Origin: Chiloscyllium plagiosum
Lineage: Eukaryota
Direction of reading: 5' to 3'
DNA: 64,000 bases
Assembly (NCBI RefSeq): GCF_004010195.1
Contig: NC_057718.1
Span: 9,930,872-9,994,871 of the forward strand
Under the pieces are notes generated by a model. It was given only the letters and a program-made list of their open reading frames with translations. It had not been told where the DNA came from and searched no databases. The translations under genes were made by a program, and so were the position numbers. Of this stretch, positions 5,590 to 33,018 are shown piece after piece (the first letter of the stretch is position 1; every line of letters starts with the position of its first letter).

Positions 5590-6834
5590 CTGGGTATACT
5601 TATGGTTTCGAAAGAATCCCATCAACAAAGCAAGCAACTTGATCTATGCACAAACTTCCCTCTCATACCCTGTTACACACACTACCCTGCCCAATTTTCC
5701 TTTGTAACACAACTTTCACCTTTAACCCTATTTTTTCATTCCCTTTCTAATGCTTCCCAACTCCCAAACCAAGGTACACATTGGCCTGCAAATGGGAAGG
5801 CTTTTGATTCTCGGAAAATGTTTTTTTTTGGATGGAGCGACAATGTTTTGGTTGCCATTCTTAATCCACCTGTTTCGGCACATTAGGTCACAGCCCTGTG
5901 ATCATTATATCCTAAGTTGCGGCTTGAACCCAGACTTTCTGGACCAGAGGTAGGGACACCACCTCTGCACCCCTAAAGCGATTGCAGTAGGATTTGAGCT
6001 GTTAAACTGTTTGTTTGCCCATTTGTCAACACTCTTGCTCTTCCAGTTGTAGAACAACACCAACCTTTTGCACTCACCCAAGTGTAGATCTTTTAACGTC
6101 AGTTGTTCTTCCAGTGCTTAAGTCAGACATCCGTCCGCCAAAAGCCGTCAAACCGGTCGATTATCTCTTCATTTGAGATTTTGCTCACAGCACAAGTAGG
6201 TGGTGAACTTCAAACAACTTCATTGTACAATTGGAATTGTGATGAGGCAAGTGTTTTCATTTTTGCAATTGTTCATGACCGGCGACTGGATTGTTTAGAA
6301 GTCTCAATTAGTACACTTGAAGTATTTTAAATTCACACAAGAGGAACACCCTCTTCTATTGTTACAGGCAATTATATCCCTGTGCTGGGAGGTATCGCAA
6401 CTAGAGTGTGATTTGAATGTTGTTTTATTTGGACAGACAGCTGGTTACCGTGTGGCTTTCCTTCATGACGCGGTGTCATGTTTGAGGAAACCAATTGCCG
6501 TGAGGTTTCCTGGATAGGTTGCCTCAACCGGAAAGGCGTCCTTTTCCAAAGCGATGCTGAAGGTTTGCGAGAGAGACAGAAAGGAAGCATGATGAAATAA
6601 AAACAATTTCTACACAACAAAATCCCACAAACAATAATAGGATCATGACAGATCATTTGAGTTTAAGGATTATTGAGGGATCAGTATAAACCAGAACAAT
6701 TAGTTGAAACTCAGCTGTTTCCTAATCACCCTGTTCAGAGATGCAATTACATACCTCTGGAGCAGGTCGGACTTAAACCTGAGCCTTCTGTCCCAGAGCT
6801 AAGAGTTGGTGCTTTGTCTGGGGTCAAGGGCCTA

Positions 6835-7645
6835 GTCATAAAGTCATAGAGATGTACAGCATGGAAACAGACCCTTCGGTCCAACCCGTCCATGCCGACC
6901 AGATATCTCAACCAATCTAGTCCCACCTGCCAGCATCCGGCCCATATCCCTCCAAACCCTTTCTATTCATATACCCATCCAAATGCCTCTTAAATGTTGC
7001 AATTGTACCAGCGTCCACCACATCCTCCGGCAGCTCATTCCAGGTCTCTTTTATATCTTTCCCCTCTCACCCTAAACCTATGCCCTCTAGTTCTGGACTC
7101 CCCGGCTCCAGGGAAAAGACTTTGTCTATTTATCCTATCCATGCCCCTGATAATTTTGTAAACCTCTATAAGGTCACCCCTCACCCTCCAACGCTCCAGG
7201 GAAAACAGCCCCAGCCTGTTCAGCCTCTCCCTATAGCTCAAACCCTCCAACCCTGGCAACATCATTGTAAATCTTTTCTGAACCCTTTCAAGTTTCACAA
7301 CATCTTTCCGATAGGAAGGAGACCAGAATTACATGCAATATTCCAACAATGGCCTAACCAATGTAGAGCTGCAACATGACCTCCCAACTCCTGTACTCAA
7401 TACTCTGACCAATAAAGGAAAGCATACCAAACGCCTTCTTCATTATCCTATCTACCTGCGACTCCACTTTCAAGGAGCTATGAACCTGCACTCCAAGATC
7501 TCTTTGTTCAGCAGCGCTCCCTAGGACCTTACCATTAAGTGTATAAGTCCTGCTCTGATTTGCCTTTCCAAAATGCACCATCTCTCATTTATCTGAATTA
7601 AACTCCATCTGCCACTTCTCAGCCCATTGGCCCATCTGGTCCAGA
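6835..7645 (-). mobile_element. CR1 LINE 3' part (ORF2 C-terminus + 3'UTR)
   Basis: KLERVQKRFTMMLPGLEGLSYRERLNRLGLFSLERWRVRGDLIEVYKI; HFGKANQSRTYTLNG; tail gtttccatgctgtacatctctatgact. Confidence 0.92.
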
Positions 7646-7649
7646 TGGT

Positions 7650-8560
7650 TGCAGAACAGAGGGACCTAGGGGTTCAGATACATAATTATTTGACCTTCCT
7701 GTCACAGGTCGACAGGATGGTTAAGAAGGCATTTAGCACGCTTGCCTTCATTGCTCAGACTTTTGAGTCTGAAGTTGGGACATCATGTTGAGGTTGTACA
7801 GATGTTGGTGAGGCCTCGATTGGAATGCTGTGTCTGATTCTGTTTGCCCAGTTACAGGAAGGATATTTTTAAGCTGGAGAGGGTTCACGAGATTTATCAG
7901 GATGTTGCTAAGAATGGAGGATTTGAGTGATAAGGAGTGGCTGGAACCTTTTTCACTGGAGTGTAGGCGGTTAAGAGGTGACCTTATAGAGGTTTATAAA
8001 ATCATGAGGGGTCTAGATAAGGTGAAAGGCAGTTGTCTTTTCCCATGGGTGGGGAATTTCAAGACTGGGGAAGAAATAGAGTCAGAGATATGCAACACAG
8101 GAACAGACTCTGTGTTCCAATTTGTCCATGCCAACCAGATATCAGAGATAAACCTAGTCCCATTTGCCAGCATTTGGCCATATTCCTTTTAAATGTTGTA
8201 ATTGTACCAGCCTCTACCACTTCCTCTGGCAGCTTATTCCAGGCACGTACCACACTCTGTGAAAAGGTTGCCCTTTAGGTCCCTTTTAAATCTGTACCCC
8301 CTCACCTTCAGTCTGTGCGCTGTAGTCGTGGACTCCCCCACCTAAGGGAAAATAGCTTGTCTGTTTACCTGATCCATGCCCCTCATGATTTTAAAAAACC
8401 TATTTTAAGATGAGAGGAGAAAGATTTATAAAGGACATGAGGGCAACTTTTTTTATACACAGAGTGGTTCGTGTGTGGAATGAACAGCCTCTTCGGAGAA
8501 TCCGTGTGAACTCAATGGGCTGAGTGGCCTGCTTCCACACGATCTGGATTCTATGATTCT
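7650..8560 (+). mobile_element. CR1 3' fragment with a nested opposite-strand CR1 piece (~8075-8395)
   Basis: RRLRGDLIEVYKIMRGLDKV on +; RAWNKLPEEVVEAGTITTFKR on -. Confidence 0.82.
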
Positions 8561-9454
8561 ATTTTTTAAACAAGATAATTAAGTATTCCCCAAAATGGCA
8601 GGAAGTTCGGAGGACATCAATGGTTCGTCCCTACCCAATCTCTAATCTCCCAGTTGCTGTAAATGTTTTATGAGCTCTCACTCTGTGTATGGTTCAGAGA
8701 AGGAAGACTTAAGTTCTTTTGTTGACTGCCAGCTTACCCTGGCAGTTGGCCTATTTGGCAGTGGACAGGGACCTACCTCTGAGACTAGTTATTACTGATT
8801 GCAACTTACAACTGCAATTTTGACAGCAGTAGTGATTTACCACTTCAAAGTTTGGGCGACCTATCAATGCTAATGGGAAGAGTCAGGTTTCAGTATTTGT
8901 TTGTCTGACTGCAGTCTGCCAGTATAAACAAATATATTCATCTTGTTTCCATACAGAAGAAGCATTGCTGTTGTAAAGTTAATGCTGCTACTTATTGTTG
9001 CTCCTACACAGTAACACAGGAACAGGACGTTGTGGAATTAACTGAACTCTATCAGGATCAGTTCTTTGAGCCTAATTAAAGAATTATATTTTTCCACAGT
9101 ATACTAACCGCACAGGAATGCTGAAGATCCCTCACTTGATCTCAATGCCAGCCCTTCTATTGGAAGTAACAGTTGATAACATCAGGTGAAGCGTGTACAA
9201 GACTCCTTTGTCCAGTGAAGTAGGTTGCAGTACATTGTCAAGGTGAAGATGTGTAATCGTCAATTAGGTGGGAGTTGTCTGAGAATGATGCCTTCTGGGA
9301 GACATGAGGCACTGTAAAAGTGAAACTGTTACTTGCTTTATTTCCCTCTGCTGCAGGTACAGTCTCACACTGAGGAACCACTTGTATAATAGTAATGTCA
9401 CTCAGCTAATAATCCAGAGGCTCAGACTAATGTTATGGTTTTAATTTTACCATC

Positions 9455-10160
9455 GGTCAGTGCATGGAGTACAGGAGTTTGGAGGTCATTGCAGCTGTAC
9501 AGGACATTGATTAGGCTGCTTTTGGAATATTGTGTTCAATTCTGGTCTCCCCACTTTGGGAAAGATATTGTACAACTTGAAAGGGTTCAGAAAAGATTGA
9601 CAGGGATGTCACCAGGGTTGGAGCTGTAGGGAGAGACTGAATAGGCTCGGGCCATTTTCCCTTGAGTGTTGAATACTCAAAGAAAGTGAGGACTGCAGAT
9701 GTTGGAGATCAGAGTCAAAACATGTGGCACTGGAAAAATGCAGCAGGTCAGGCAGCATCTGAGGAGCAGGAGAGTCACTTTTAGGCATAAACCATTCATC
9801 AGGCTGAGGGTGACCTTTTATAGAGGCTTATGAAATCATGAGGGGCATGGATAGAATGTATAGTCAAGGTCTTTTCCCTGGGGTAGGGGAATCCAAACTA
9901 AAGGGCATAGAATTAAGGTGAGGGGGAAAGATTTAAAAGGGACCGAAGAGGCAACATATCGAAATAGAGGGTGGTGCGTGTATGGAATGAGCTGCCATCC
10001 AGAGGAAGCCAGTGGAGGCTGGTACAATTACAACATTTAAAAGGCATCTGGATGAGCATATGAATAGGAAAGGTTTGGAGACATACAGGCCTTGTGCTGG
10101 GAAATGGGACTCGATATTTGGTCAGCATGGATGAGTTGGGCCTCAGTGACTCTATGGCAT
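9455..10160 (+). mobile_element. CR1 3' fragment interrupted by a PLE family A terminal piece (~9680-9802, minus)
   Basis: LEYCVQFWSPHFGKDIVQLERVQKRLT; the insert aaagtgaggactgcagatg...gcaggtcaggcagcatc...ttcatcagg is the reverse complement of the PLE end. Confidence 0.82.
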
Positions 10161-12505: not shown

Positions 12506-13929
12506 AAAATAGGCCATTTGGTCTATTTCTGCACTCAGTGAGATCATGACCAATCTGATAACACTCAAATCCACCTTCATGCCTTTTCCCCATCATTGTT
12601 GATTCCCTTACTGGTTAAGTACAGTCAAGGTTGGGAAGGTGGATTTATTTTAATCTACAGCTGTGACCAGCACTGTGTTAACATGTGCAGAGAACCAGTA
12701 TAGACACGATGGGCTGAATGGTCACCTTCACTACAATACATTTATGATTCTGCAATGCTGTGTTTCTGCACATGCACATTTGTTGCACCATCTAGTGGTG
12801 AAACATTGACAATACTTCCTTTGGAGGCAAATTAACTGTAGTTGCTGCTATGATCTATTTACTTACTAGCCTTTTAGAGACAAATCTACCACACAGAAAA
12901 GAGCCCTTTGGCCCATTGAGTTCATGCCAATCATACCAAACACCTCAATATTCTAATCTCATTTTCCAGCACTTGGCCCATGGCCATATGTGGCTACATT
13001 CCCAAAAGAGCAATGGACCCAAAACTGTGGTCATAGAGTCACAGAGATTGCCAGCACGGAAACAGACCCTTTGGTCCAACTCGTCCATGCTGACCAGATA
13101 ACCCAACCTATTTAGTCTCACCTGCCAGCGCTTGGCCCATATCCCTCTTAACCCTTCTTATTCATAAACCATGATGCCTTTTAAATGTTGTAATTGTCCC
13201 AGCGTCCACCACTTCTTCTGGCAGCTTATTCCATACACTCACCACCCACTGCGTGAAAACATTGCCCCTTACGTCCCTTTTTAAATTTTTCCCCTCTCAC
13301 CCTAAACCTATGCCCTCCAGTTCTGGACTTCCCCCACCCCAGGGAAAAGACTTTGTCTATTTATCCTATCTATGCCCCTCATGATTTTATAAACCTCTAT
13401 AAGGTCAGCCTTCAACGCTCCAGGGAAAACAGCCCCAGCCTATTTAGCCTCTCCCTATAGCTCAAATCCTCCAACCCTGGCAACACCCTTGTAAATCCTC
13501 TCCAAACCCCCTCAAGTTTCGCAACATGCCTCTGATAGGAAGGAAACCAGACTTGAACACAACACTCCAAAAGTGGCCTAGCCAACATCCTGCACAGCCG
13601 CAACATGACCTCCCAATTCCAAAATCGATGCTCTGACCAATAAAGCAAAGCATGCAAAACGCTGCCTTTGCTAACCTATCCACCTGCGACTCTACCTTCA
13701 AAAAGCTATGAACCTGCACTCCAAGGTCTCTTTGTTCAGTAACACCCCCCAGGATCCTACCATTGAGCATGTAAGTCCTGCCCTGATTTGCTTTCCCAAA
13801 ATGCAGCTCCTCGCATTTATCCAAATCAAACTCCATCTGCCACTCCCCAGCCCATTGGCCTATCTGATCAAGATCCCACAGTAATCCGAGGTAACCTTCG
13901 GTGTCCATTACACCTCCAACCCTGGTGTC

Positions 13930-15050
13930 TCCTGGACAGTCTCAGATTCCTCCCTCCCCTTCCTCGACCTTTCTATTTCTATCTCAGGCGACCGAATCAA
14001 CAAACCGACCAACTCCCACAGCTACCTGGACTACACCTCCTCCCACCCTGCCCCCTGTAAAAACGCCATCCCATTCTCCCAATTCCTTCGTCTCTGCCGC
14101 ATCTGCTCCCAGGAGGACCCGTTCCAAAAACGTACAACCCAGATGGCCTCCTTCTTCAAGGACCGCAATTTCCCCCCCCGACGTGGTCGACGATNNNNNN
14201 NNNNNNNNNNNNNNNNNNNNNNNNNNNNNNNNNNNNNNNNNNNNNNNNNNNNNNNNNNNNNNNNNNNNNNNNNNNNNNNNNNNNNNNNNNNNNNNNNNNN
14301 NNNNNNNNNNNNNNNNNNNNNNNNNNNNNNNNNNNNNNNNNNNNNNNNNNNNNNNNNNNNNNNNNNNNNNNNNNNNNNNNNNNNNNNNNNNNNNNNNNNN
14401 NNNNNNNNNNNNNNNNNNNNNNNNNNNNNNNNNNNNNNNNNNNNNNNNNNNNNNNNNNNNNNNNNNNNNNNNNNNNNNNNNNNNNNNNNNNNNNNNNNNN
14501 NNNNNNNNNNNNNNNNNNNNNNNNNNNNNNNNNNNNNNNNNNNNNNNNNNNNNNNNNNNNNNNNNNNNNNNNNNNNNNNNNNNNNNNNNNNNNNNNNNNN
14601 NNNNNNNNNNNNNNNNNNNNNNNNNNNNNNNNNNNNNNNNNNNNNNNNNNNNNNNNNNNNNNNNNNNNNNNNNNNNNNNNNNNNNNNNNNNNNNNNNNNN
14701 NNNNNNNNNNNNNNNNNNNNNNNNNNNNNNNNNNNNNNNNNNNNNNNNNNNNNNNNNNNNNNNNNNNNNNNNNNNNNNNNNNNNNNNNNNNNNNNNNNNN
14801 NNNNNNNNNNNNNNNNNNNNNNNNNNNNNNACCTCTTTCCACCTATCACATTTCTGACGCCCCTCCCCCAAGTCCCTCCTCCCTACCTTTTATCTTAGCC
14901 TGCTGGACAAACTTTCCTCATTCCTGAAGAAGGGCTTATGCCCGAAACGTCGATTCTCCTGTTCCCTGGATGCTGCCTGACCTGCTGCTCTTTTCTAGCA
15001 ACACATTTTCAGCTCTGATCTCCAGTATCTGCAGACCCCACTTTCTCCTC
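13930..15050 (+). mobile_element. PLE family A insertion (contains an assembly gap) with hammerhead motif at 14920-14955
   Basis: WTVSDSSLPFLDLSISISGDRIN...KPTNSHSYLDYTSSHP; its 3' end is nearly identical to 2315-2498 plus the tail gatctccag.atctgcagac...actttctcc. It splits the CR1 FADD motif region. Confidence 0.88.
14195..14830. other. Assembly gap (N run)
   Basis: Run of n. Confidence 1.
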
Positions 15051-15895
15051 AAAGTCATCTGCAAACCCACCAACTATACCTCCCATGTTCACATCCAAAT
15101 CATTTATATAAATGACGAAAAGCAGTGGACCCAACAGTGATCTTTGCGGCACTCCACCAATCACAGGCCTCCAGTCTGAAAAACAAACCACCACCCTGTG
15201 TCTTCTACCCGCAAGCCAGTTCTGTATCCAAATGGTCAGTTCTCTCTATATACCAGGAGACCTAACCTTGCTAACCAGTGTCCCATGGGGAACCCCGTCG
15301 AACACCCCACTGAAGAGCATACAGATCATATCCACCACTCTGCCCTCATCAATCCTGTTTGTCACTTTTTCAAAGAACTCAACCAAGTTCACGAGGCATG
15401 ATTTCCCCACGCCCAAAGCCATGTTGACCATCCCAAATCAGTCTTGCCTTTCCAAATATGTGCAATTCCTGTCCCTCAGAATTCCCTCCAACAACTTGCC
15501 CACCACCGACGTCAGGCTCACCAGTCCACAGTTCCTTGGCTTGTCCTTACCACCCTTTTTTTTTAAACAGTGGCACCACGTTAGCCAATTTCCAGTCTTC
15601 CAGCACCTCACATGCGACTATTGATGATACAAATATCTCAACAAGGGGCCCAGCAATCACTTCCCTAGCTTCCCACAGAGTTCTCGGCTACACCTGATCA
15701 GGTCCTGGGGATTTATCCACCTTTTATGTGTTTCAAGACATCCAGCACTTCCTCCTCTGTAATACGGACATTTTTTCAAGATGTCACCATCTATTTCCCT
15801 ACATTCTATATCTTCCATGTCCTTCTCCACAGTAAATACTGATGCAAAATACTGGTTTAATATCTCCCCTTCTCCTGTGGCTCCACACCAAGGCC

Positions 15896-17425
15896 TACGT
15901 TCGTGACACCACCCACGCCCTCCACCTCCTCCAGGATTTCCGCTTCCCCGGTCCCCAACGCCTCATCTTCACCATGGACATCCAGTCCCTGTACACCTCC
16001 ATCCCCCATCACGAAGGACTCAAAGCACTCCGCTTCTTCCTTTCCCGCCGTACCACCCAGTACCCTTCCACCGACTCTTTCTGTGGCCATAACAGTTACT
16101 ATATAAATGCAATTTAATTTTAATAACTCAATAGTTACTCATAGAAATCTAATGTTATATCACTGGGATGCTTTTTTGCCATTATTATGGCAATAATGTT
16201 TTTTTCAAATTTAAAAAAAAGTTATGATATTTCAGCTACTTTAATCCCATGTGTATCACTGATGATTTGTATTTACTCTGTGGAAATTTTAATTGAGTAG
16301 AAGATTTTACTGCATTTTACTTTCTGATTTGCTGTTTGAGAATACTTCAGTGTAATTGGCTGCCAACTCCCTGCGGTGATATCACTGTTACTGTATGCCT
16401 AGTGTTTGTCTTGATCTTGCACATATCAAGAAAGGGAAACTTCATGCCTCAGAGATCACTAGATAGCAGAAAATCCCTTTAATACTTCAAAGTACTCTTT
16501 TGGTATGATCCTAGATATTGAATATTGTTAGATATTATTACTGGAGCGAATCATAGATTTACATTTAAATAGTTCCCATTTCTGTCTTTGTTCACTCCTT
16601 TCCTCAGCAATATTTTGTGTTTGATTTTGTCTACTTTCTGTGGTTTTATTTACCCTAATGAAGAAGAGCATATCTTCTCAACATCACAACTATTGATCTC
16701 ACCCTGCTTGGCTGTTGTATGGAACCCCCTACGTGTTAACCCCTTAAAGCCAAATACATAACAATATTGTCAAATTTGATGGAATTTTAATGCATTTACT
16801 TTAGGGGAAATTTGGCATGTTAATATGCTGCAGTTTTTCTTATCTGCGATGTTTTGTGTTATGTTGCTGAAAATATTACTGATGAAATACTTAGCAGTTG
16901 TAGTAAAATCATGCGTATACTTAGGATGAAGAAGATTATGAGTACCACATATGCTTGGTCCAGTTCTTGTTGGATTCATTTGGATATCAAAGTTGAAACT
17001 TTATTGCTGGAACAGCACAGCAGGTCAGGCAGCATCCAGGGAACAGGAGATTCGACGTTTCGGGCACAGGCCCTTCTTCAGGAATGAGCAGAGAGTGTTC
17101 AGCAGGAGAAGATAAAAGGGATCCTTCCAGCCCGGCACCGCCTTCCTGGCCTGCAGTCTTCTTCTTGACCTCTCCGCCTCCATCCTACTCCGACCTATCA
17201 CCCTCACCTTGACCTCTTTCCACCTATCACATTTCCAACGCCCCTCCTCCAAGTCCCTCCTCCCTACCTTTTATCTTCTCCTGCTGAACACTCTCTGCTC
17301 ATTCCTGAAGAAGGGCCTGTGCCCGAAACGTCGAATCTCCTGTTCCCTGGATGCTGCCTGACCTGCTGTGCTGTTCCAGCAATAAAGTTTCAACTTTGAT
17401 CTCCAGCATCTGCAGACCTCACTTT
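15896..17425 (+). mobile_element. Composite PLE insertion: RT fragment + ~0.9 kb non-PLE DNA + inverted terminal-repeat module
   Basis: 15-bp TSD ctccacaccaaggcc at 15881-15895 and 17426-17440, with the CR1 continuing on both sides. RT motif YVRDTTHALHLLQDF...FTMDIQSLYTSIPH at 15896-16075. 134-bp inverted repeats at 16986-17119 and 17267-17400. Confidence 0.85.
17301..17336 (+). ncRNA. Minimal hammerhead motif with perfect stem I; antisense twin at 17050-17085
   Basis: ATTC CTGAAGA a GGGC ctgt GCCC GAAA CGTC GAAT; predicted cleavage after 17332. Confidence 0.85.
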
Positions 17426-18849
17426 CTCCACACCAAGGCCACCTTGCTGATCTTTGAGAGGCCCTATTCTTTCCCTAGTTACCCTTTTGTCCTTAGTGTA
17501 TTTGTAAAAACCCTTTGGATTCTCCTTAATTCTATTTGCTAAAACTATTTCATTTCCCCTTTTTTCCCCTACTGATTTCCTTCTTAAGTATACTCCTACC
17601 TCCTTTATACTCTTCCAAGGATTCACTCGATCTCTTCTGTCTATATCATCTGACATATGCTTCCTCCTTATTTCTTAACCAAACCCTCAATTTCTTTAGT
17701 CATCAAGCATTCCCTATACCTACCAGCCTTTCCTTTCACCCGATGAGGAATATGCTATCTCTGGACTCTTGTTATCTTATTTTTGAAGGCTTCCCACTTT
17801 CCAGCTGTCCCTTTACCTGCGAACATCTGCCCCAATTAGTTTTTGAAAGTTCTTGCCTAATAACCGTCAAAATTAGCCTTTCTCCAATTTAGAACTTCAA
17901 CTTTTAGATCTGGTCTATCCTTTTCCATCACTATTTTAAAATGAATAGAATTATGGTCGCTGGCCCCAAAGTGCTCCCCCATCGACACCTCAGTCACCTG
18001 CCCTGCCTTATTTCCCAAGAGTCGGTCAAGTTTTGCACCTTCTCTAGTAGGTACATCCACATACTGAATCAGAAAAGTTTCTTGTACACCCTTAACAAAT
18101 GCCTCTCCATCTAAACCCTTAACACAATGGCAGTCCCAATCTATGTTTGGTGAGTTAAAATCCCCTACCATAATCACCTTATTATTCTTATAGATAACTG
18201 AAATCTGCTTTCAAATTTGTTTCTCAATTTCCCTCTGACTATTAGGGGGTCTATAATACAATCCCAATAAGGAATCATTCCTTTCTTATTACGCAGTTTC
18301 ACCCAAATAACTTCCCTGGATGTATTTTCAGTTATATCCTCCCTAAGTACAGCTGTAATGCTATCCCCTATCAAAACACCACTCCCCTCCACTCTTGCCT
18401 CCTTTTCTATCTTGGAACATTAAGCTGCTAGTCCTATCCATCCCTGAGCCACGTTTCTGTAATTGGTATGATATCCCAATCCTAACCATGCCCTGCATTA
18501 ATCTGCCCTCCCAAATAGGCCTCTTGCATTGAAGTAAATGCAGTTTAATTTATTAGTCCTACCTTGTCCCTGCCTGCCCTGACTGTTTGACCTACTTCTT
18601 TTCTGAACTGTACCAGTCTGAAATTGATCTCTTTCCTCTGTATCTCCCTGAGTCCCACCCATCTCCTTACTAGCTTAAATCCTCCTGAGCAGCTCTAGCA
18701 AATTTCCCTGCCAGTATATTAGTCCCCTTCCAATTTAGGTGCAATCCATCCTTCTCGTACAAGTCACTTCTACCCCAGAAGAGATTCCAATGATCCAAAA
18801 ATATGATTCCTTCTCCCATACACCAGTTCCTCAGCCATGCATTTATCTG

Positions 18850-19247
18850 GGCGAAAGTCTAGATTAGAGTGGTGCTGGAAAAACACAGCAGGTCAGGCAG
18901 CATCAGAGGAGCAGAGAAATCGATGTTTCGGGCAAAAGCCCTTCATCAGGAGTGAGTTAGAGAGCGGGGAAATGAGGAAACTGGTGAAGTCCACATTGAT
19001 GCCCTGGGGTTGAAGTGTTCTGAGGCAGAAGGTGAGGCGTCAGGTGGTGTGGGAGTGGCGGGGGAGGCGGCCCAGGACCTGCATGTCCTCAGCAGACTGG
19101 GAGGGGGGGTTGAAACGTTCGGCCATGGGGCGGTGGGTTTGATTGTGCGGTTGTCCTGGAGATGTTCCCTAAAGCACTCTGCGAGAAGGCGTCCAGTCTC
19201 CCCAGTGAAAAGGAGACCACATCGGGAGCAACGGATACAATACTTTT
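18850..19247 (-). mobile_element. Internally deleted PLE (GIY-YIG remnant + hammerhead terminus) inserted in CR1 ORF1
   Basis: YCIRCSRCGLLFTGETGRLLAECFREHL; terminus ctgatgaagggcttttgcccgaaac on -; 16-bp TSD gccatgcatt(t/c)atctg at 18834-18849 and 19248-19263. Confidence 0.85.
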
Positions 19248-20038
19248 GCCATGCATTCATCTGCTCTATCCTCGTATTCCTAATCACAGAGCCTCCGTGC
19301 TGCCCCTTGGTGTATACATCCAAGTTGCTACTGTCACATTGCTGATTGAGAGATGCAGATATACACAAATGACCATTTTATAAAATTATTTAATGGGAAT
19401 TAGATGTCATCAGGATATGTGTTTCCATTTCTAATTACCCTTGAATTGAGTGACTTGCTCTGTCATTTCAGAAGGTAGTTATGATTCAACCATAATGCTG
19501 GAGGTCTGCAGTCACATGTAGGCCAGACCAAGTAAGAATGGCACATTAGTTTCAGTATTACAATGTTAGGTTGCTGCACTGTTTCCTGACAGATGTGATG
19601 TAGAGTCCCTCCACGGTTGACTCTGCTCTGCACTGGGATTCAGAATAAATGATTTTATTAATGCATCCACAAACATGTAGGGAGTGCAAAGTATGCAACC
19701 CTGCTTTTCCTTAAAAACAAGGTGATACTGAGATTCACTTACTTTTTAGTACATTATTGTTTATTCAGTTACAACATAGTCATACATTGCAGCCATTGTA
19801 GTTTAATACCCAGTATACATAAAGCACAGATATCAAGCAATCTTGAGTTTTGAATTCTGAAGGAGTCCAAGAATATAGGAATACACGGTGTAAGTGCATT
19901 TGTGGTAGAAGATCATGTGTTAACGATGGAGAAGGTTTGAGGGTCTTGATGGTTATCTTTGGGGATAGGATTTTCACTCCTTTCTAAATAAAAGGTGGTG
20001 TACAAATGCTGGTTGCTGCTAGGTCAAGGTGAATGATG

Positions 20039-31404: not shown

Positions 31405-33018
31405 ATAGACAATAGGTGTAGGAGTAGGCCATTCTGCCCTTTGAGCCTGCACGACCATTCATTATGATCATGGCTGATCATCCTCAATCAGTATCCTGTT
31501 CCTGCCTTATCTCCATAACCCTTGATTCCACTATCCTTGAGAGCTCTATCCAATTCTTTATTAAACGAATCCAGAGACTGGGCTTCCACTGCCTTCTGGG
31601 GCAGAGCATTCCACACACCCACCACACTCTGGGTGAAGAAGTTTCTCCTTATCTCTGTCCTAAATGGCCTACTCCTTATTTTTAAGCTGTGTCCTCTGGT
31701 TCAAGACTCACCCATCAGCGGAAACATGTTTCCTACTGCCAGAGTGTCCAATCCTTTAATAGTCTTATACGTCTCTAACAGATCCTCTCTCAGTCCCCTA
31801 AACTCAAGGGTATACAAGCCCAGTCGCTCCAATCTTTCAAGTTAAGATAGTCCCGCCATTCCAGGAATTGACCTCGTGAACCTACGCTGCACTCCCTCAA
31901 TAGCCAGAATATCTTTCCTCAAATTTGGAGACCAGAACTGTACACAATACTCCAGGTGTGGTCTCACCAGGGCCCTGTACAGCTGCAGAAGCACCTCTTT
32001 GCTTCTATACTCAATCCCTCTTGTTATCAAGGCCAGCATGCTATTAGCTTTCTTCACTACCTGCTGTACCTGCATGCTTACCTTCATTGACTGGTGTACA
32101 AGAATACCCAGATCTCTTTGTACTGCCCCTTTTACCTAACTTGACTCCATTGAGGTAGTAATCTGCCTTCCTGTTCTTGCCACCAAAGTGGATAACCACA
32201 CATTTATCCACATTAAACTGCATCTGCCATGCATCTGTCCATGCACCTAACCTGTCCAGNNNNNNNNNNNNNNNNNNNNNNNNNNNNNNNNNNNNNNNNN
32301 NNNNNNNNNNNNNNNNNNNNNNNNNNNNNNNNNNNNNNNNNNNNNNNNNNNNNNNNNNNNNNNNNNNNNNNNNNNNNNNNNNNNNNNNNNNNNNNNNNNN
32401 NNNNNNNNNNNNNNNNNNNNNNNNNNNNNNNNNNNNNNNNNNNNNNNNNNNNNNNNNNNNNNNNNNNNNNNNNNNNNNNNNNNNNNNNNNNNNNNNNNNN
32501 NNNNNNNNNNNNNNNNNNNNNNNNNNNNNNNNNNNNNNNNNNNNNNNNNNNNNNNNNNNNNNNNNNNNNNNNNNNNNNNNNNNNNNNNNNNNNNTCCATT
32601 TAGGTGGTAATCTGCCTTCCTGTTCTTGCCACCAAAGTGGATAACCATACATTTATCTACATTAAACTGCATCTGCCATCCGTCTGTCCACTCACCTAAC
32701 CTGTCCAGGTCACCCTGTAATCTAACATCCTCCTCACATTTCACCCTGCCACCCAGCTTTGTATCATCAGCAAATTTGCTAATGTTACTATTAATACCAT
32801 CTTCTATATCATTAATATATATTGTAAAAAGCTGCAGTCCCAGCACTGATCCCTGCGGTACCCCACTGGTTACCGCCTGCCATTCCAAAAGGGAGCCGTT
32901 TATCACTACTCTTTGTTTCCTGTCAGCCAACCAATTTTCAATCCAAGTCAGTACTTTGCCCCCAATACCATGCACCCTAATTTTGCTCACTAACCTCCTA
33001 TGTGGGACTTTATCAAAG
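31405..33018 (-). mobile_element. Young CR1 (RT domain to 3' end), nested in another LINE 3' end (~31155-31405 and ~33018-33070); contains a gap
   Basis: FDKVPHRRLVSKI...SGVPQGSVLGLQLFTIYINDI...KFADDTKLGG; RPHLEYCVQFWSPNLRKDILAIEGVQRRFTR. Confidence 0.93.
32260..32594. other. Assembly gap (N run)
   Basis: Run of n. Confidence 1.

Follow-up and report, generated by a model that had tools for sequence, protein, structure and literature searches.

A host-derived composite element with Penelope-like termini, probably spread in trans, in an assembled shark genome

A window of 64,000 nt of Chiloscyllium plagiosum DNA holds a LINE that is interrupted at positions 15896-17429, probably by a single target-primed insertion of a 5'-truncated "orphan" copy of a non-coding, multi-copy composite element, which a Penelope-like element (PLE) would have mobilised in trans. 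In the assembly this element forms a family of about 200-300 copies, and its unique stretch, of which the window copy retains 905 nt as its cargo, is host DNA by origin.

Results

The insertion and its target are laid out in Table 1. Both flanks are parts of the same minus-strand LINE; the right one matches Exo_endo_phos (Pfam E 1.8e-5, 25.0 bits, cut-off 24.5), and a Pfam search with the left frame (15660-15962, minus strand) gave no match. In a multi-copy LINE contig of the public DNA run X5, 9 other letters link 15866 to 17440, hence the LINE runs uninterrupted, without the insertion, in other LINE copies. As originally predicted, the target is duplicated: the direct repeat CTCCACACCAAGGCC is 100% identical on both sides and brackets 15896-17425, with a chance expectation of about 0.009 for such 15-mer pairs in 4.5 kb. 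Since CTCC is the element's own 3' end (found there in 21 of 23 copies of the long end type), the true target-site duplication (TSD) is ACACCAAGGCC (11 bp), followed by 4 nt common to target and element. The reverse transcriptase (RT) fragment, the cargo and the PLE terminus all lie inside this single TSD pair and thus arrived as one insertion, which upholds the original prediction on this point.

Table 1. Features of the insertion and of the interrupted LINE, in window coordinates
Feature	Position	Strand	Remark
LINE, left part of interrupted target	15052..15880	-	LINE-like frame 15657-15962 on minus strand
Direct repeat, left copy	15881..15895	.	TSD of 11 bp is 15885-15895; CTCC, 4 nt, common with element end
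Sense fragment of young PLE RT, 180 nt	15896..16075	+	motif region FTMDIQSLYTSIP
AT-rich host-derived cargo, 905 nt	16076..16980	+	3' part of the 1.4-kb unique stretch of the family body
Inverted PLE 3' terminus	16981..17119	-	reaches 10 nt into the tail; minimal-hammerhead core 17057-17081
Direct PLE 3' end, 310 nt	17120..17429	+	hammerhead core 17305-17329; tail-less end site 17395
Optional PLE tail, 34 nt	17396-17429	+	within direct PLE 3' end
Direct repeat, right copy	17426..17440	.	its 4 leading nt are the element's 4 final nt
LINE, right part of interrupted target	17441..18400	-	AP-endonuclease domain 17860-18210

The fragment at the left is PLE sequence, as had been proposed. It consists of an open 60-aa frame (GC 0.60), is 100% identical at 16 places in the genome including the window's own (1016 candidates) and sits in an ORF of the PLE copy L053 that matches RVT_1 (E 5.3e-9, 36.5 bits, cut-off 29.6). 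The autonomous partner thus carries a reverse transcriptase domain; the RT core is legible in full in L053 only, and the 60-aa piece alone matched no Pfam family. After 16075, PLE copies and read contigs continue with ACCCTCC... in the PLE frame and not into the cargo. All 7 PLE copies fetched continue past the fragment as PLE sequence for at least 5 nt, mostly for several hundred, before they meet a gap or an internal deletion, and none of the seven enters the cargo. At the other end, window positions 17146-17429 are 97.9% identical to the 3' end of PLE copy L052. Pfam searches returned no match, to an endonuclease or otherwise, on 18949-19377 (minus strand, E<=0.01) and none on 13885-14193. 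Read by eye, frames in the window (...YCIRCSRCGLLFTGETGR..EH..) and on the minus strand of copy L033 (LYIGEM..RFAEH) hold a motif that we take to be GIY-YIG and hence a candidate endonuclease; most copies are N-filled where this domain is expected.

The predicted hammerhead-bearing inverted terminal module was recovered by pattern. Its two arms (the second at 17267-17405) are 139 nt each with a single mismatch, at 16985, and both carry the core CTGANGA-N-GGG..CCC-GAAAC on opposite strands (Table 1), a pattern found 7 times in the window and never in 100 shuffles. The putative hammerhead of both arms reads CTGAAGA-A-GGGC-CTGT-GCCC-GAAAC-GTC, with features that match those given in the available part of PMC4209133. 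Rfam models reported no hammerhead family over 14000-20000 at E<=1, nor over 17240-17430 (191 nt) at E<=10; a match to sn2429 over 14000-20000 (23 bits against a threshold of 50) and seven matches over 17240-17430, all with E >1, were set aside as noise.

The stretch between fragment and hairpin is AT-rich and neither LINE nor PLE, again as described before, with a GC content of 0.326 against 0.46 and 0.39 in the flanks and only short frames, none of them a long ORF. It had been proposed to be a donor-locus flank captured in this one insertion, a reading to which a high copy number would be contrary, and a high copy number is what the genome search returned: each of the 40 matches scored shows 100% identity over 907 nt (321 candidates). 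A 41-mer around position 16466 matches the assembly 210 times (103 times on the plus and 107 times on the minus strand; control 0), with copies on every large contig, and all 100 matches listed of these 210 are exact; a 1-mismatch pattern search for A at 16466 found none among the 100 matches listed of 210. The 30 fetched loci are identical to window 16076-17119 without exception, one of them from 16079, and the window's RT fragment is present in 0 of these 30. Given this and the high copy number, the window copy is a truncated family member and not the founder.

The copies are truncated at the left to varying extents: 21 different left ends were counted within 1.5 kb, while 9 copies extend further. 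Candidate counts rise towards the tail, from 50 at -1970 and 112 at -1050 to 210 for the 41-mer and 299 for the last 106 nt. TSDs of 9-17 bp bound 14 of the 31 short loci; of the 9 long copies, which begin beyond these loci on the 5' side, 8 have TSDs of 13-18 bp. At the 3' end there are two end types 34 nt apart, with tail (23/31 copies) and without (8/31), and in all 31 copies the cargo's right end meets the inverted arm at one and the same base. At the 5' end, 8 of 14 analysed copies have gained inverted PLE termini that start at the same two end sites, and another 4 of the 14 have gained sense PLE ORF pieces with differing breakpoints. The junctions between these 5' pieces and the body are blunt and different in every copy; microhomology is absent at 6 of 8 of them, which we count against our preferred explanation.

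Variation is distributed unevenly along the copies. No real variant was found in 62,604 cells of the body, as opposed to 8 singletons in the final 170 nt of the direct arm, and the hairpin tails of 31 copies fall into 24 distinct sequences and 7 structural types. Such diversity is not expected from one master RNA, so that several masters, RT hopping across the hairpin or consensus-filling by the assembler would be needed. The diversity of the hairpin tails beside an invariant body counts against our preferred explanation. We dropped the idea that the inverted arm was templated by one opposite-strand read-through RNA, since beyond 17119 substitutions distinguish the inverted arms of one hairpin type from those of another. 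The assembly is rich in gaps, with N runs inside most young PLE copies and beside (GT)n; the window's second N run sits inside a LINE, flanked by duplicated LINE sequence, and we therefore no longer regard N runs as masks of PLE sequence.

Longer copies reveal the order of the element: an antisense PLE piece, (GT)n, about 1.5 kb that contain a tRNA-SINE-like stretch, an older PLE terminus, 1.4 kb of unique sequence and the young PLE hairpin. The older terminus breaks off 7 nt before its tail-less end, and there the unique stretch begins; in these copies the cargo continues unbroken into 498 nt more of unique DNA. The body is non-coding, with no N-free ORF >92 aa and none with a known domain in positions 6990-10000 of copy L038. 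Without coding capacity, and with a 3' end and an end dimorphism in common with the autonomous PLE, the family has the make-up of a non-autonomous element mobilised by PLEs. Among 40 mid-body copies, 8 lack the cargo 41-mer, and the one of these examined is an older relative with the same upstream body and a complete older PLE tail. N directly precedes (GT)n in 5 of the 6 copies that reach it; in the remaining one, L033, the 215 nt upstream resemble the antisense PLE endonuclease region and are found at 100% identity at 38 other places (1659 candidates). The 5' end of the family was not found among these 6 copies, nor its founder or source locus in the assembly.

Public reads give a different picture of the cargo. 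The evidence consists of the contig sets of three DNA runs (X1, X5, X10) from two organisms that are close relatives, namely two samples of organism A from two studies and one of organism B. Cargo contigs have depths of 3.9 (X1), 11.3 and 8.3 (X5) and 6-18 (X10, about 97% alike), about single copy although contig depth is not itself a copy number, whereas the LINE and PLE parts reach summed depths of 1e5-3e6 in the same runs. It follows from this depth that those individuals lack a family of 200-300 copies. Upstream, the cargo contigs continue as family body; in X1 and X5 the 1.4-kb stretch is contiguous and single copy, and an X1 contig of 1455 nt passes unbranched through 16076. Position 16466 reads A in all three runs and G in the window and every assembly copy listed. 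In organism B, the match ends at 16987 and is followed by 113 nt unlike the window. As to word content, X1 holds 0.78 of the window and the deeper X5 0.71. The contig pieces listed, which are the longest only, do not bridge 15895/15896 or 16075/16076 or span the whole stretch, and are uninformative either way. One contig that may derive from RNA (X15, depth 2.7) extends over 16076-16235 and a further 102 letters upstream, and is no proof of a full transcript.

Discussion

With the anatomy of the family in mind, we propose the following origin. An older non-autonomous, PLE-tailed element would have sat upstream of 1.4 kb of host DNA, and its transcripts would have run past its end through this flank to a short PLE hairpin inserted downstream, which could supply the start sites for PLE reverse transcription. 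The family may thus have been born by read-through, a transduction-like capture, and then been mobilised in trans by the abundant young PLE. For the window copy, the PLE protein would have nicked the LINE target and cDNA would have begun at the outer of the two start sites, the use of which accounts for the 34-nt tail. RT would then have copied tail and hairpin together with 905 nt of body, jumped to a PLE mRNA to copy 180 nt of RT coding sequence, and the cDNA end would have been joined to the target, leaving the 11-bp TSD. Such a template switch onto PLE RNA, part of the original prediction, is still the simplest reading of the RT fragment and fits the sense ORF pieces in 4 of 14 copies. The transduced host flank proposed there fared differently: the host origin stands, with single-copy depth in the reads, but its capture in this one insertion does not, with 210 matches to the 41-mer.

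The conflict between assembly and reads can be resolved in two ways. A tentative but real possibility is that 1.4 kb of single-copy host DNA became a retrotransposon family whose burst, to some 200-300 identical copies, was confined to the lineage of the assembled animal, while the two individuals of organism A and the related organism B keep a founder-type locus. If this holds, it would be an example, still in progress and open to dating, of trans-mobilisation and transduction by a PLE in a vertebrate, and would document PLE RT jumping onto its own mRNA. The less likely resolution is an artefact of assembly, in which ordinary 5'-truncated PLE copies would have had their interiors, at some 200-300 sites, filled from a single-copy locus that abuts a PLE inverted arm; we judge it unlikely, yet it is the only competing explanation with appreciable weight. 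It would account for the single-copy cargo and the other letter at 16466 in all three DNA runs, and X1, which holds more of the window's words than the deeper X5, could be the source sample. It also agrees with the pasted look of the invariant block, whereas the arms beside unique flanks carry private differences, with the N runs in most young PLE copies, one gap being flanked by duplicated sequence, and with the length of 2 of the 4 sense-ORF copies, which come within about 90 nt of plain PLEs (1530 vs about 1440; 1871 vs about 1806). If it were true, the case would be a warning that the present assembly multiplies a single-copy locus some hundreds of times.

Several properties of the copies are hard to reconcile with such filling. 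Each copy has its own blunt junction, to a different point of the body, and junctions of this kind argue for real ones, as an overlap-based assembler cannot invent them; to our knowledge, no read-based assembler or gap closer writes adjacencies without read support. Furthermore, the 8 copies with inverted arms would in truth be hairpins of about 0.35-0.5 kb, while the assembly has 1.6-3.8 kb at these sites, so that paired reads would contradict the artefact. The window-type hairpin, expected if it had been pasted together with the block, is missing in 3 of the 4 sense-ORF copies, and the 2 of these 4 that do not come close to plain PLE length are about 560-650 nt too long. Finally, the strands are balanced (103/107), with copies on all large contigs.

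The remaining alternatives carry very little weight. Two events, that is a plain PLE insertion later invaded by an unrelated transposon now seen as cargo, would explain the high copy number in the assembly; this is very improbable, as the cargo lacks both terminal repeats and its own TSD and is single copy in public reads, its right end is fixed at the inverted arm in 31 of 31 copies and its left end lies wherever the copy is truncated, and longer copies continue unbroken into the 498 nt of unique DNA. Equally improbable is that the cargo belongs, as an internal or 3'-untranslated part, to the normal make-up of the autonomous PLE: it always adjoins PLE termini, but none of the 7 fetched PLE copies continues into it, read contigs go on with ACCCTCC... 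after 16075, summed PLE depths are 1e5-1e6 against 4-18 for the cargo, and it has no ORF. Least probable of all is a private transduction of donor-locus flank at the window insertion only, for despite the one TSD pair around all parts and a host-like cargo unrelated to the LINE or the PLE ORF, the 210 41-mer matches (40/40 scored identical), with other flanks, truncation points and TSDs of their own, and the absence of the RT fragment from the other 30 copies already refute it for the assembly, unless all other copies are artefacts, in which case the window copy is one too.

A trans-mobilised composite born by read-through has a familiar counterpart. Goodier and Pickeral, both cited in PMC6431247, reportedly described 3' transduction by L1, each in 2000. 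In L1 and SVA, transcription reads through a weak end into the flank and uses a downstream 3' signal, orphan transductions occur, and composites spread in trans. The shark element resembles them in severe 5' truncation, which may spare nothing but the transduced piece, and would share with them read-through, a downstream 3' signal and trans-spread of a composite. It has no poly(A), however; a second PLE terminus, with RT start sites inside it, serves as its 3' signal, both the tail dimorphism of PLEs and inverted 5' copies are seen at its ends, and its endonuclease would be GIY-YIG, not APE. If the copies are real, they would show that PLEs in a vertebrate are able, as L1 is, to make a new repeat family out of the host DNA beside them.

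Of all classes of eukaryotic retrotransposons, PLEs are understood least, and their choice of template, cDNA start and completion of insertion are known mostly from one in-vitro study (PMC11167929). Their optional tail is 30-40 bp long and lies between two RT start sites (PMC11167929; available part of PMC8557442). The family bears the signature of a canonical PLE insertion as set out in PMC11167929 and the accessible portion of PMC8557442, with strong 5' truncation, an inverted, itself 5'-truncated 5' copy, an optional tail (34 nt here) and a hammerhead motif; it departs from it in that the copied RNA is mostly non-PLE and that 4 of 14 copies carry a sense ORF piece instead of an inverted terminus. 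If real, the copies are a natural record of about 200-300 insertions of one marked non-PLE template, covering RT start-site use (23 to 8), the truncation profile and the 5' joins, to inverted termini or sense mRNA.

The original prediction had called transduction by vertebrate PLEs little documented. PLE-mediated transduction of host DNA is already in print for bdelloid rotifers (Arkhipova et al. 2013, as cited in the available part of PMC6431247); for sharks or other vertebrates we found no report in a search of mainly open-access main texts. As far as that part of the source describes the rotifer case, both involve host DNA between or beside PLE terminal repeats that act in cis, moved by PLE machinery, while the present case concerns a vertebrate host and a non-coding cargo, with some 200-300 near-identical copies in the assembly; most copies are 5'-truncated, and the window copy keeps only transduced DNA and tail. 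Non-autonomous PLE derivatives are known as well: the MRC1-type elements of Chlamys belong to them (accessible portion of PMC8557442), and animal non-LTR retrozymes, tandem units of 51-972 bp, are thought to move via circular RNA, according to the part available of bioRxiv 10.64898/2026.07.22.740005. As these partial sources present them, both kinds agree with the shark element in having no ORF and in a 3' or pLTR sequence, hammerhead region included, that is common to them and an autonomous PLE. Unlike the retrozymes as described there, the shark element is at least 3.4 kb long, dispersed and flanked by TSDs, with a body of ordinary genomic DNA.

Results

The insertion is flanked by a single minus-strand LINE with an AP-endonuclease domain, and a 15-mer pair such as its direct repeat has a chance expectation of ~0.009 (per 4.5 kb). 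The original prediction gave the anatomy accurately: the 15-bp repeat pair, a reverse transcriptase (RT) fragment of a Penelope-like element (PLE), ~905 bp of AT-rich DNA (the cargo) and a hammerhead-bearing inverted terminus were all found. The two arms differ by 1 mismatch and both carry the motif CTGAAGA-A-GGGC-CTGT-GCCC-GAAAC-GTC, which has the minimal PLE hammerhead features set out in PMC4209133. Shuffled sequence gave 0 occurrences of the hammerhead core pattern, the window 7; Rfam models did not detect the motif on the arms in the window stretch searched. Rfam's sn2429 snoRNA model matched 16293-16366 (minus strand) weakly, at 23.4 bits and thus below the threshold of 50 (E 0.3), which was read as chance.

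Features of the insertion in the window and of the body of longer copies
Feature	Position	Description
Direct repeat CTCCACACCAAGGCC	15881-15895 and 17426-17440	two copies found
RT fragment	15896-16075	180 nt, open frame with RT motifs
Cargo	16076-16980	905 nt, GC 0.33, without coding potential
Inverted arm	16981-17119	139 nt
Direct PLE 3' end	17120-17429	310 nt; portion 17267-17405 is the second arm
Longer-copy body, part 1	upstream of cargo	(GT)n run
Longer-copy body, part 2		tRNA-SINE-like stretch
Longer-copy body, part 3		older PLE terminus, 97.7% like window 14831-15007
Longer-copy body, part 4		498 nt unique DNA, continuous into cargo

The cargo had been interpreted as host DNA captured privately at this insertion. 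Compared with its own genome, as had been proposed, it yielded 321 candidates, and all 40 scored matches were 100% identical across all 907 bases; these come from contigs C1-C7 and do not include the copy in the window itself, which is on C9. A 41-mer round 16466 has 210 genome matches (103 plus, 107 minus; control 0), exact in all of the first 100 of the 210 among the matches listed. All 30 fetched loci match the window exactly from 16076 (16079 in one) to 17119, inverted arm included, and a private capture is not borne out. The window's RT fragment is absent from all 30. It is part of a young PLE of very high abundance (1016 genome candidates; 16 matches at 100%, 24 at 99%), whose ORF matches RVT_1 and whose 3' end equals window 17146-17429, so that the tail of the family resembles a PLE insertion that was 5'-truncated to a very short length and bears an inverted copy at its 5' end.

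Left ends of the family are variable: 21 distinct positions lie no more than 1.5 kb from where the cargo starts, 9 copies extend beyond, and candidate counts climb toward the tail, from 50 at -1970 and 112 at -1050 to 210 for the 41-mer and 299 for the last 106 nt. Two kinds of right end, separated by 34 nt, were seen in 31 copies: ...CACTTTCTCC in 23, the window copy among them, and ...GCAATAAAGTTTCAACT in 8. The 34 nt are the tail that PLE insertions carry optionally (PMC8557442), which in-vitro work has attributed to a pair of internal RT start sites (PMC11167929). Target-site duplications (TSDs) of 9-17 bp border 14/31 short loci and TSDs of 13-18 bp border 8/9 of the copies extending past these; none was found in the remaining 8 short loci, the left ends of some lying near the edge of the examined DNA.

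Extra sequence of 54-277 nt separates the left TSD from the truncation point (14 copies analysed). It is an inverted PLE terminus in 8, beginning exactly at either end site, a sense PLE ORF piece in 4 (the window and fetched loci L001, L012 and L030) and something else in 2. The L030 piece matches a PLE copy at 97.5%, upstream of the RT; those of L001 and L012 were assigned by frame alone (KPADKGG..., ...LSRGLTFVP), presumably PLE N-terminal motifs. On the invariant body, hairpin tails occur in 24 different sequences and 7 structural types, three of these types covering 25/31 copies. In L005, L016, L030 and L019 the hairpins are perfect or near-perfect palindromes (arms 168-222 nt, 0-2 nt between), and those of other copies are asymmetric.

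No ORF was seen in the body upstream of the cargo in longer copies. At locus L033, 215 nt adjoining (GT)n (6775-6989) recur at 100% in 38 other places (1659 candidates) and read LYIGEMKHRFDDRFAEH... on the minus strand, interrupted by a stop or a frame change some 25 codons in. They resemble the PLE endonuclease region in antisense and would make up the far 5' part of the family.

Discussion

A better description of the window insertion than a private capture is that of a truncated copy from a composite family born by transduction and mobilised by a PLE. In the family, the older PLE terminus ends 7 nt before its tail-less end would fall and is followed by 1.4 kb. In 8 of 40 copies of a mid-body segment, the cargo 41-mer is missing at the distance where it was expected; the one examined (L059/L060) shares the upstream body and continues with a complete older PLE terminus plus tail, then a different flank, and is an older or parallel non-autonomous element. 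This locus (L059 1-460 and L060, C9:86240000-86244800 of genome G000) holds the (GT)n-plus-1.5-kb body, with >1200 N upstream of (GT)n. We hypothesize that a copy of the older PLE-tailed element lay upstream of the 1.4 kb, that its transcripts read through into the flank, and that RT start sites were supplied by the hairpin of a young PLE located 1.4 kb downstream. Such a read-through origin would resemble L1 3' transduction, and the window copy, whose truncation leaves the last 905 nt of the body, an orphan transduction. Of the original interpretation, a single insertion and host-derived DNA are retained, and a template switch at the RT fragment is plausible. PLE transduction as a kind is already on record, host-DNA transduction by rotifer PLEs being stated in PMC6431247, citing Arkhipova et al. 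2013. Non-autonomous PLE relatives are described in PMC8557442 and a 2026 preprint (bioRxiv 10.64898/2026.07.22.740005).

Is the family real? We compared four contig sets of public sequencing runs: X1 and X5 (organism A, two studies), X10 (organism B) and X15 (organism A, possibly RNA). LINE and PLE parts reach summed depths of 1e5-3e6, whereas the cargo lies on single contigs at 3.9 (X1), 11.3 and 8.3 (X5) and 6-18 (X10), contig depth being no copy number and holes in contig coverage proving nothing. Other low-copy LINE variants lie at a depth of 4-10 in X1 and of 13-34 in X5. Position 16466 is A in all three DNA runs vs G in the window and every assembly copy among the matches listed. A 1455-nt X1 contig covers 17011 to 16076 without a break and then continues for 519 nt of sequence unlike the window, a length that in the family body would lead up to the older PLE terminus. 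In X10 the cargo is ~97% alike to the window, and the match ends at 16987, where the inverted arm begins, with 113 nt of further sequence. The contigs are a strong hint, not proof, that the sampled animals have a founder-type locus (organism A) or a locus perhaps predating hairpin arrival (organism B), and that they are without the amplified family.

The same low depth would fit copies that are an assembly artefact, as would the many gaps, with N runs inside most PLE copies and beside (GT)n, and a window gap bordered by duplicated LINE sequence. Likewise, the body shows 0 real variants in 62,604 cells (21 odd cells all fall in one copy, its boundary probably set wrongly) beneath so many hairpin types, while direct arms near unique flanks hold 8 private differences. 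However, an invariant interior is also expected from consensus gap-filling of real identical repeats in a short-read assembly, by which private differences survive only close to unique flanks. Against an artefact, the blunt junctions differ from copy to copy in their body position, and each would need read support, as to our knowledge any assembler requires. Copies of the hairpin type span 1.6-3.8 kb as assembled, although the real insertions would measure 0.35-0.5 kb if the assembly were wrong, 3/4 copies with sense ORF pieces have hairpins unlike the window's, and strands and contigs are used evenly. Altogether, we regard an artefact as unlikely and a family truly present in the organism as probable, which requires that the runs compared do not derive from the assembled lineage. 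A real, lineage-specific burst would raise the significance of the finding, whereas an artefact would make it low.

The 335-N gap at 32260-32594, in a minus-strand LINE, has the same RT segment on both sides (...DRLG.WTD.WQMQFNVDKC.VIHFGGKNRKADY.LNG); two overlapping contigs seem to have been left unmerged here, as happens in scaffold assemblies whose gap sizes are estimated. The 3' part of an older-subfamily PLE copy occupies 13767-15051 (plus strand), with 636 N (14195-14830) in place of its presumed endonuclease region; its terminus (14831-15051) adjoins the same LINE as the insertion. A third PLE terminus, 82% like the young one and with core CTGATGA, lies at 18873-19377 (minus strand), where an ORF reading ...YCIRCSRCGLLFTGETGR..EH.. 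is GIY-YIG-like by eye and has no Pfam match. In a PLE copy at L056 (2237-2755), the RT frame (...RRTTQYPSTDTL) is joined straight to the hammerhead region of the terminus, through a deletion or a template jump internal to this PLE.
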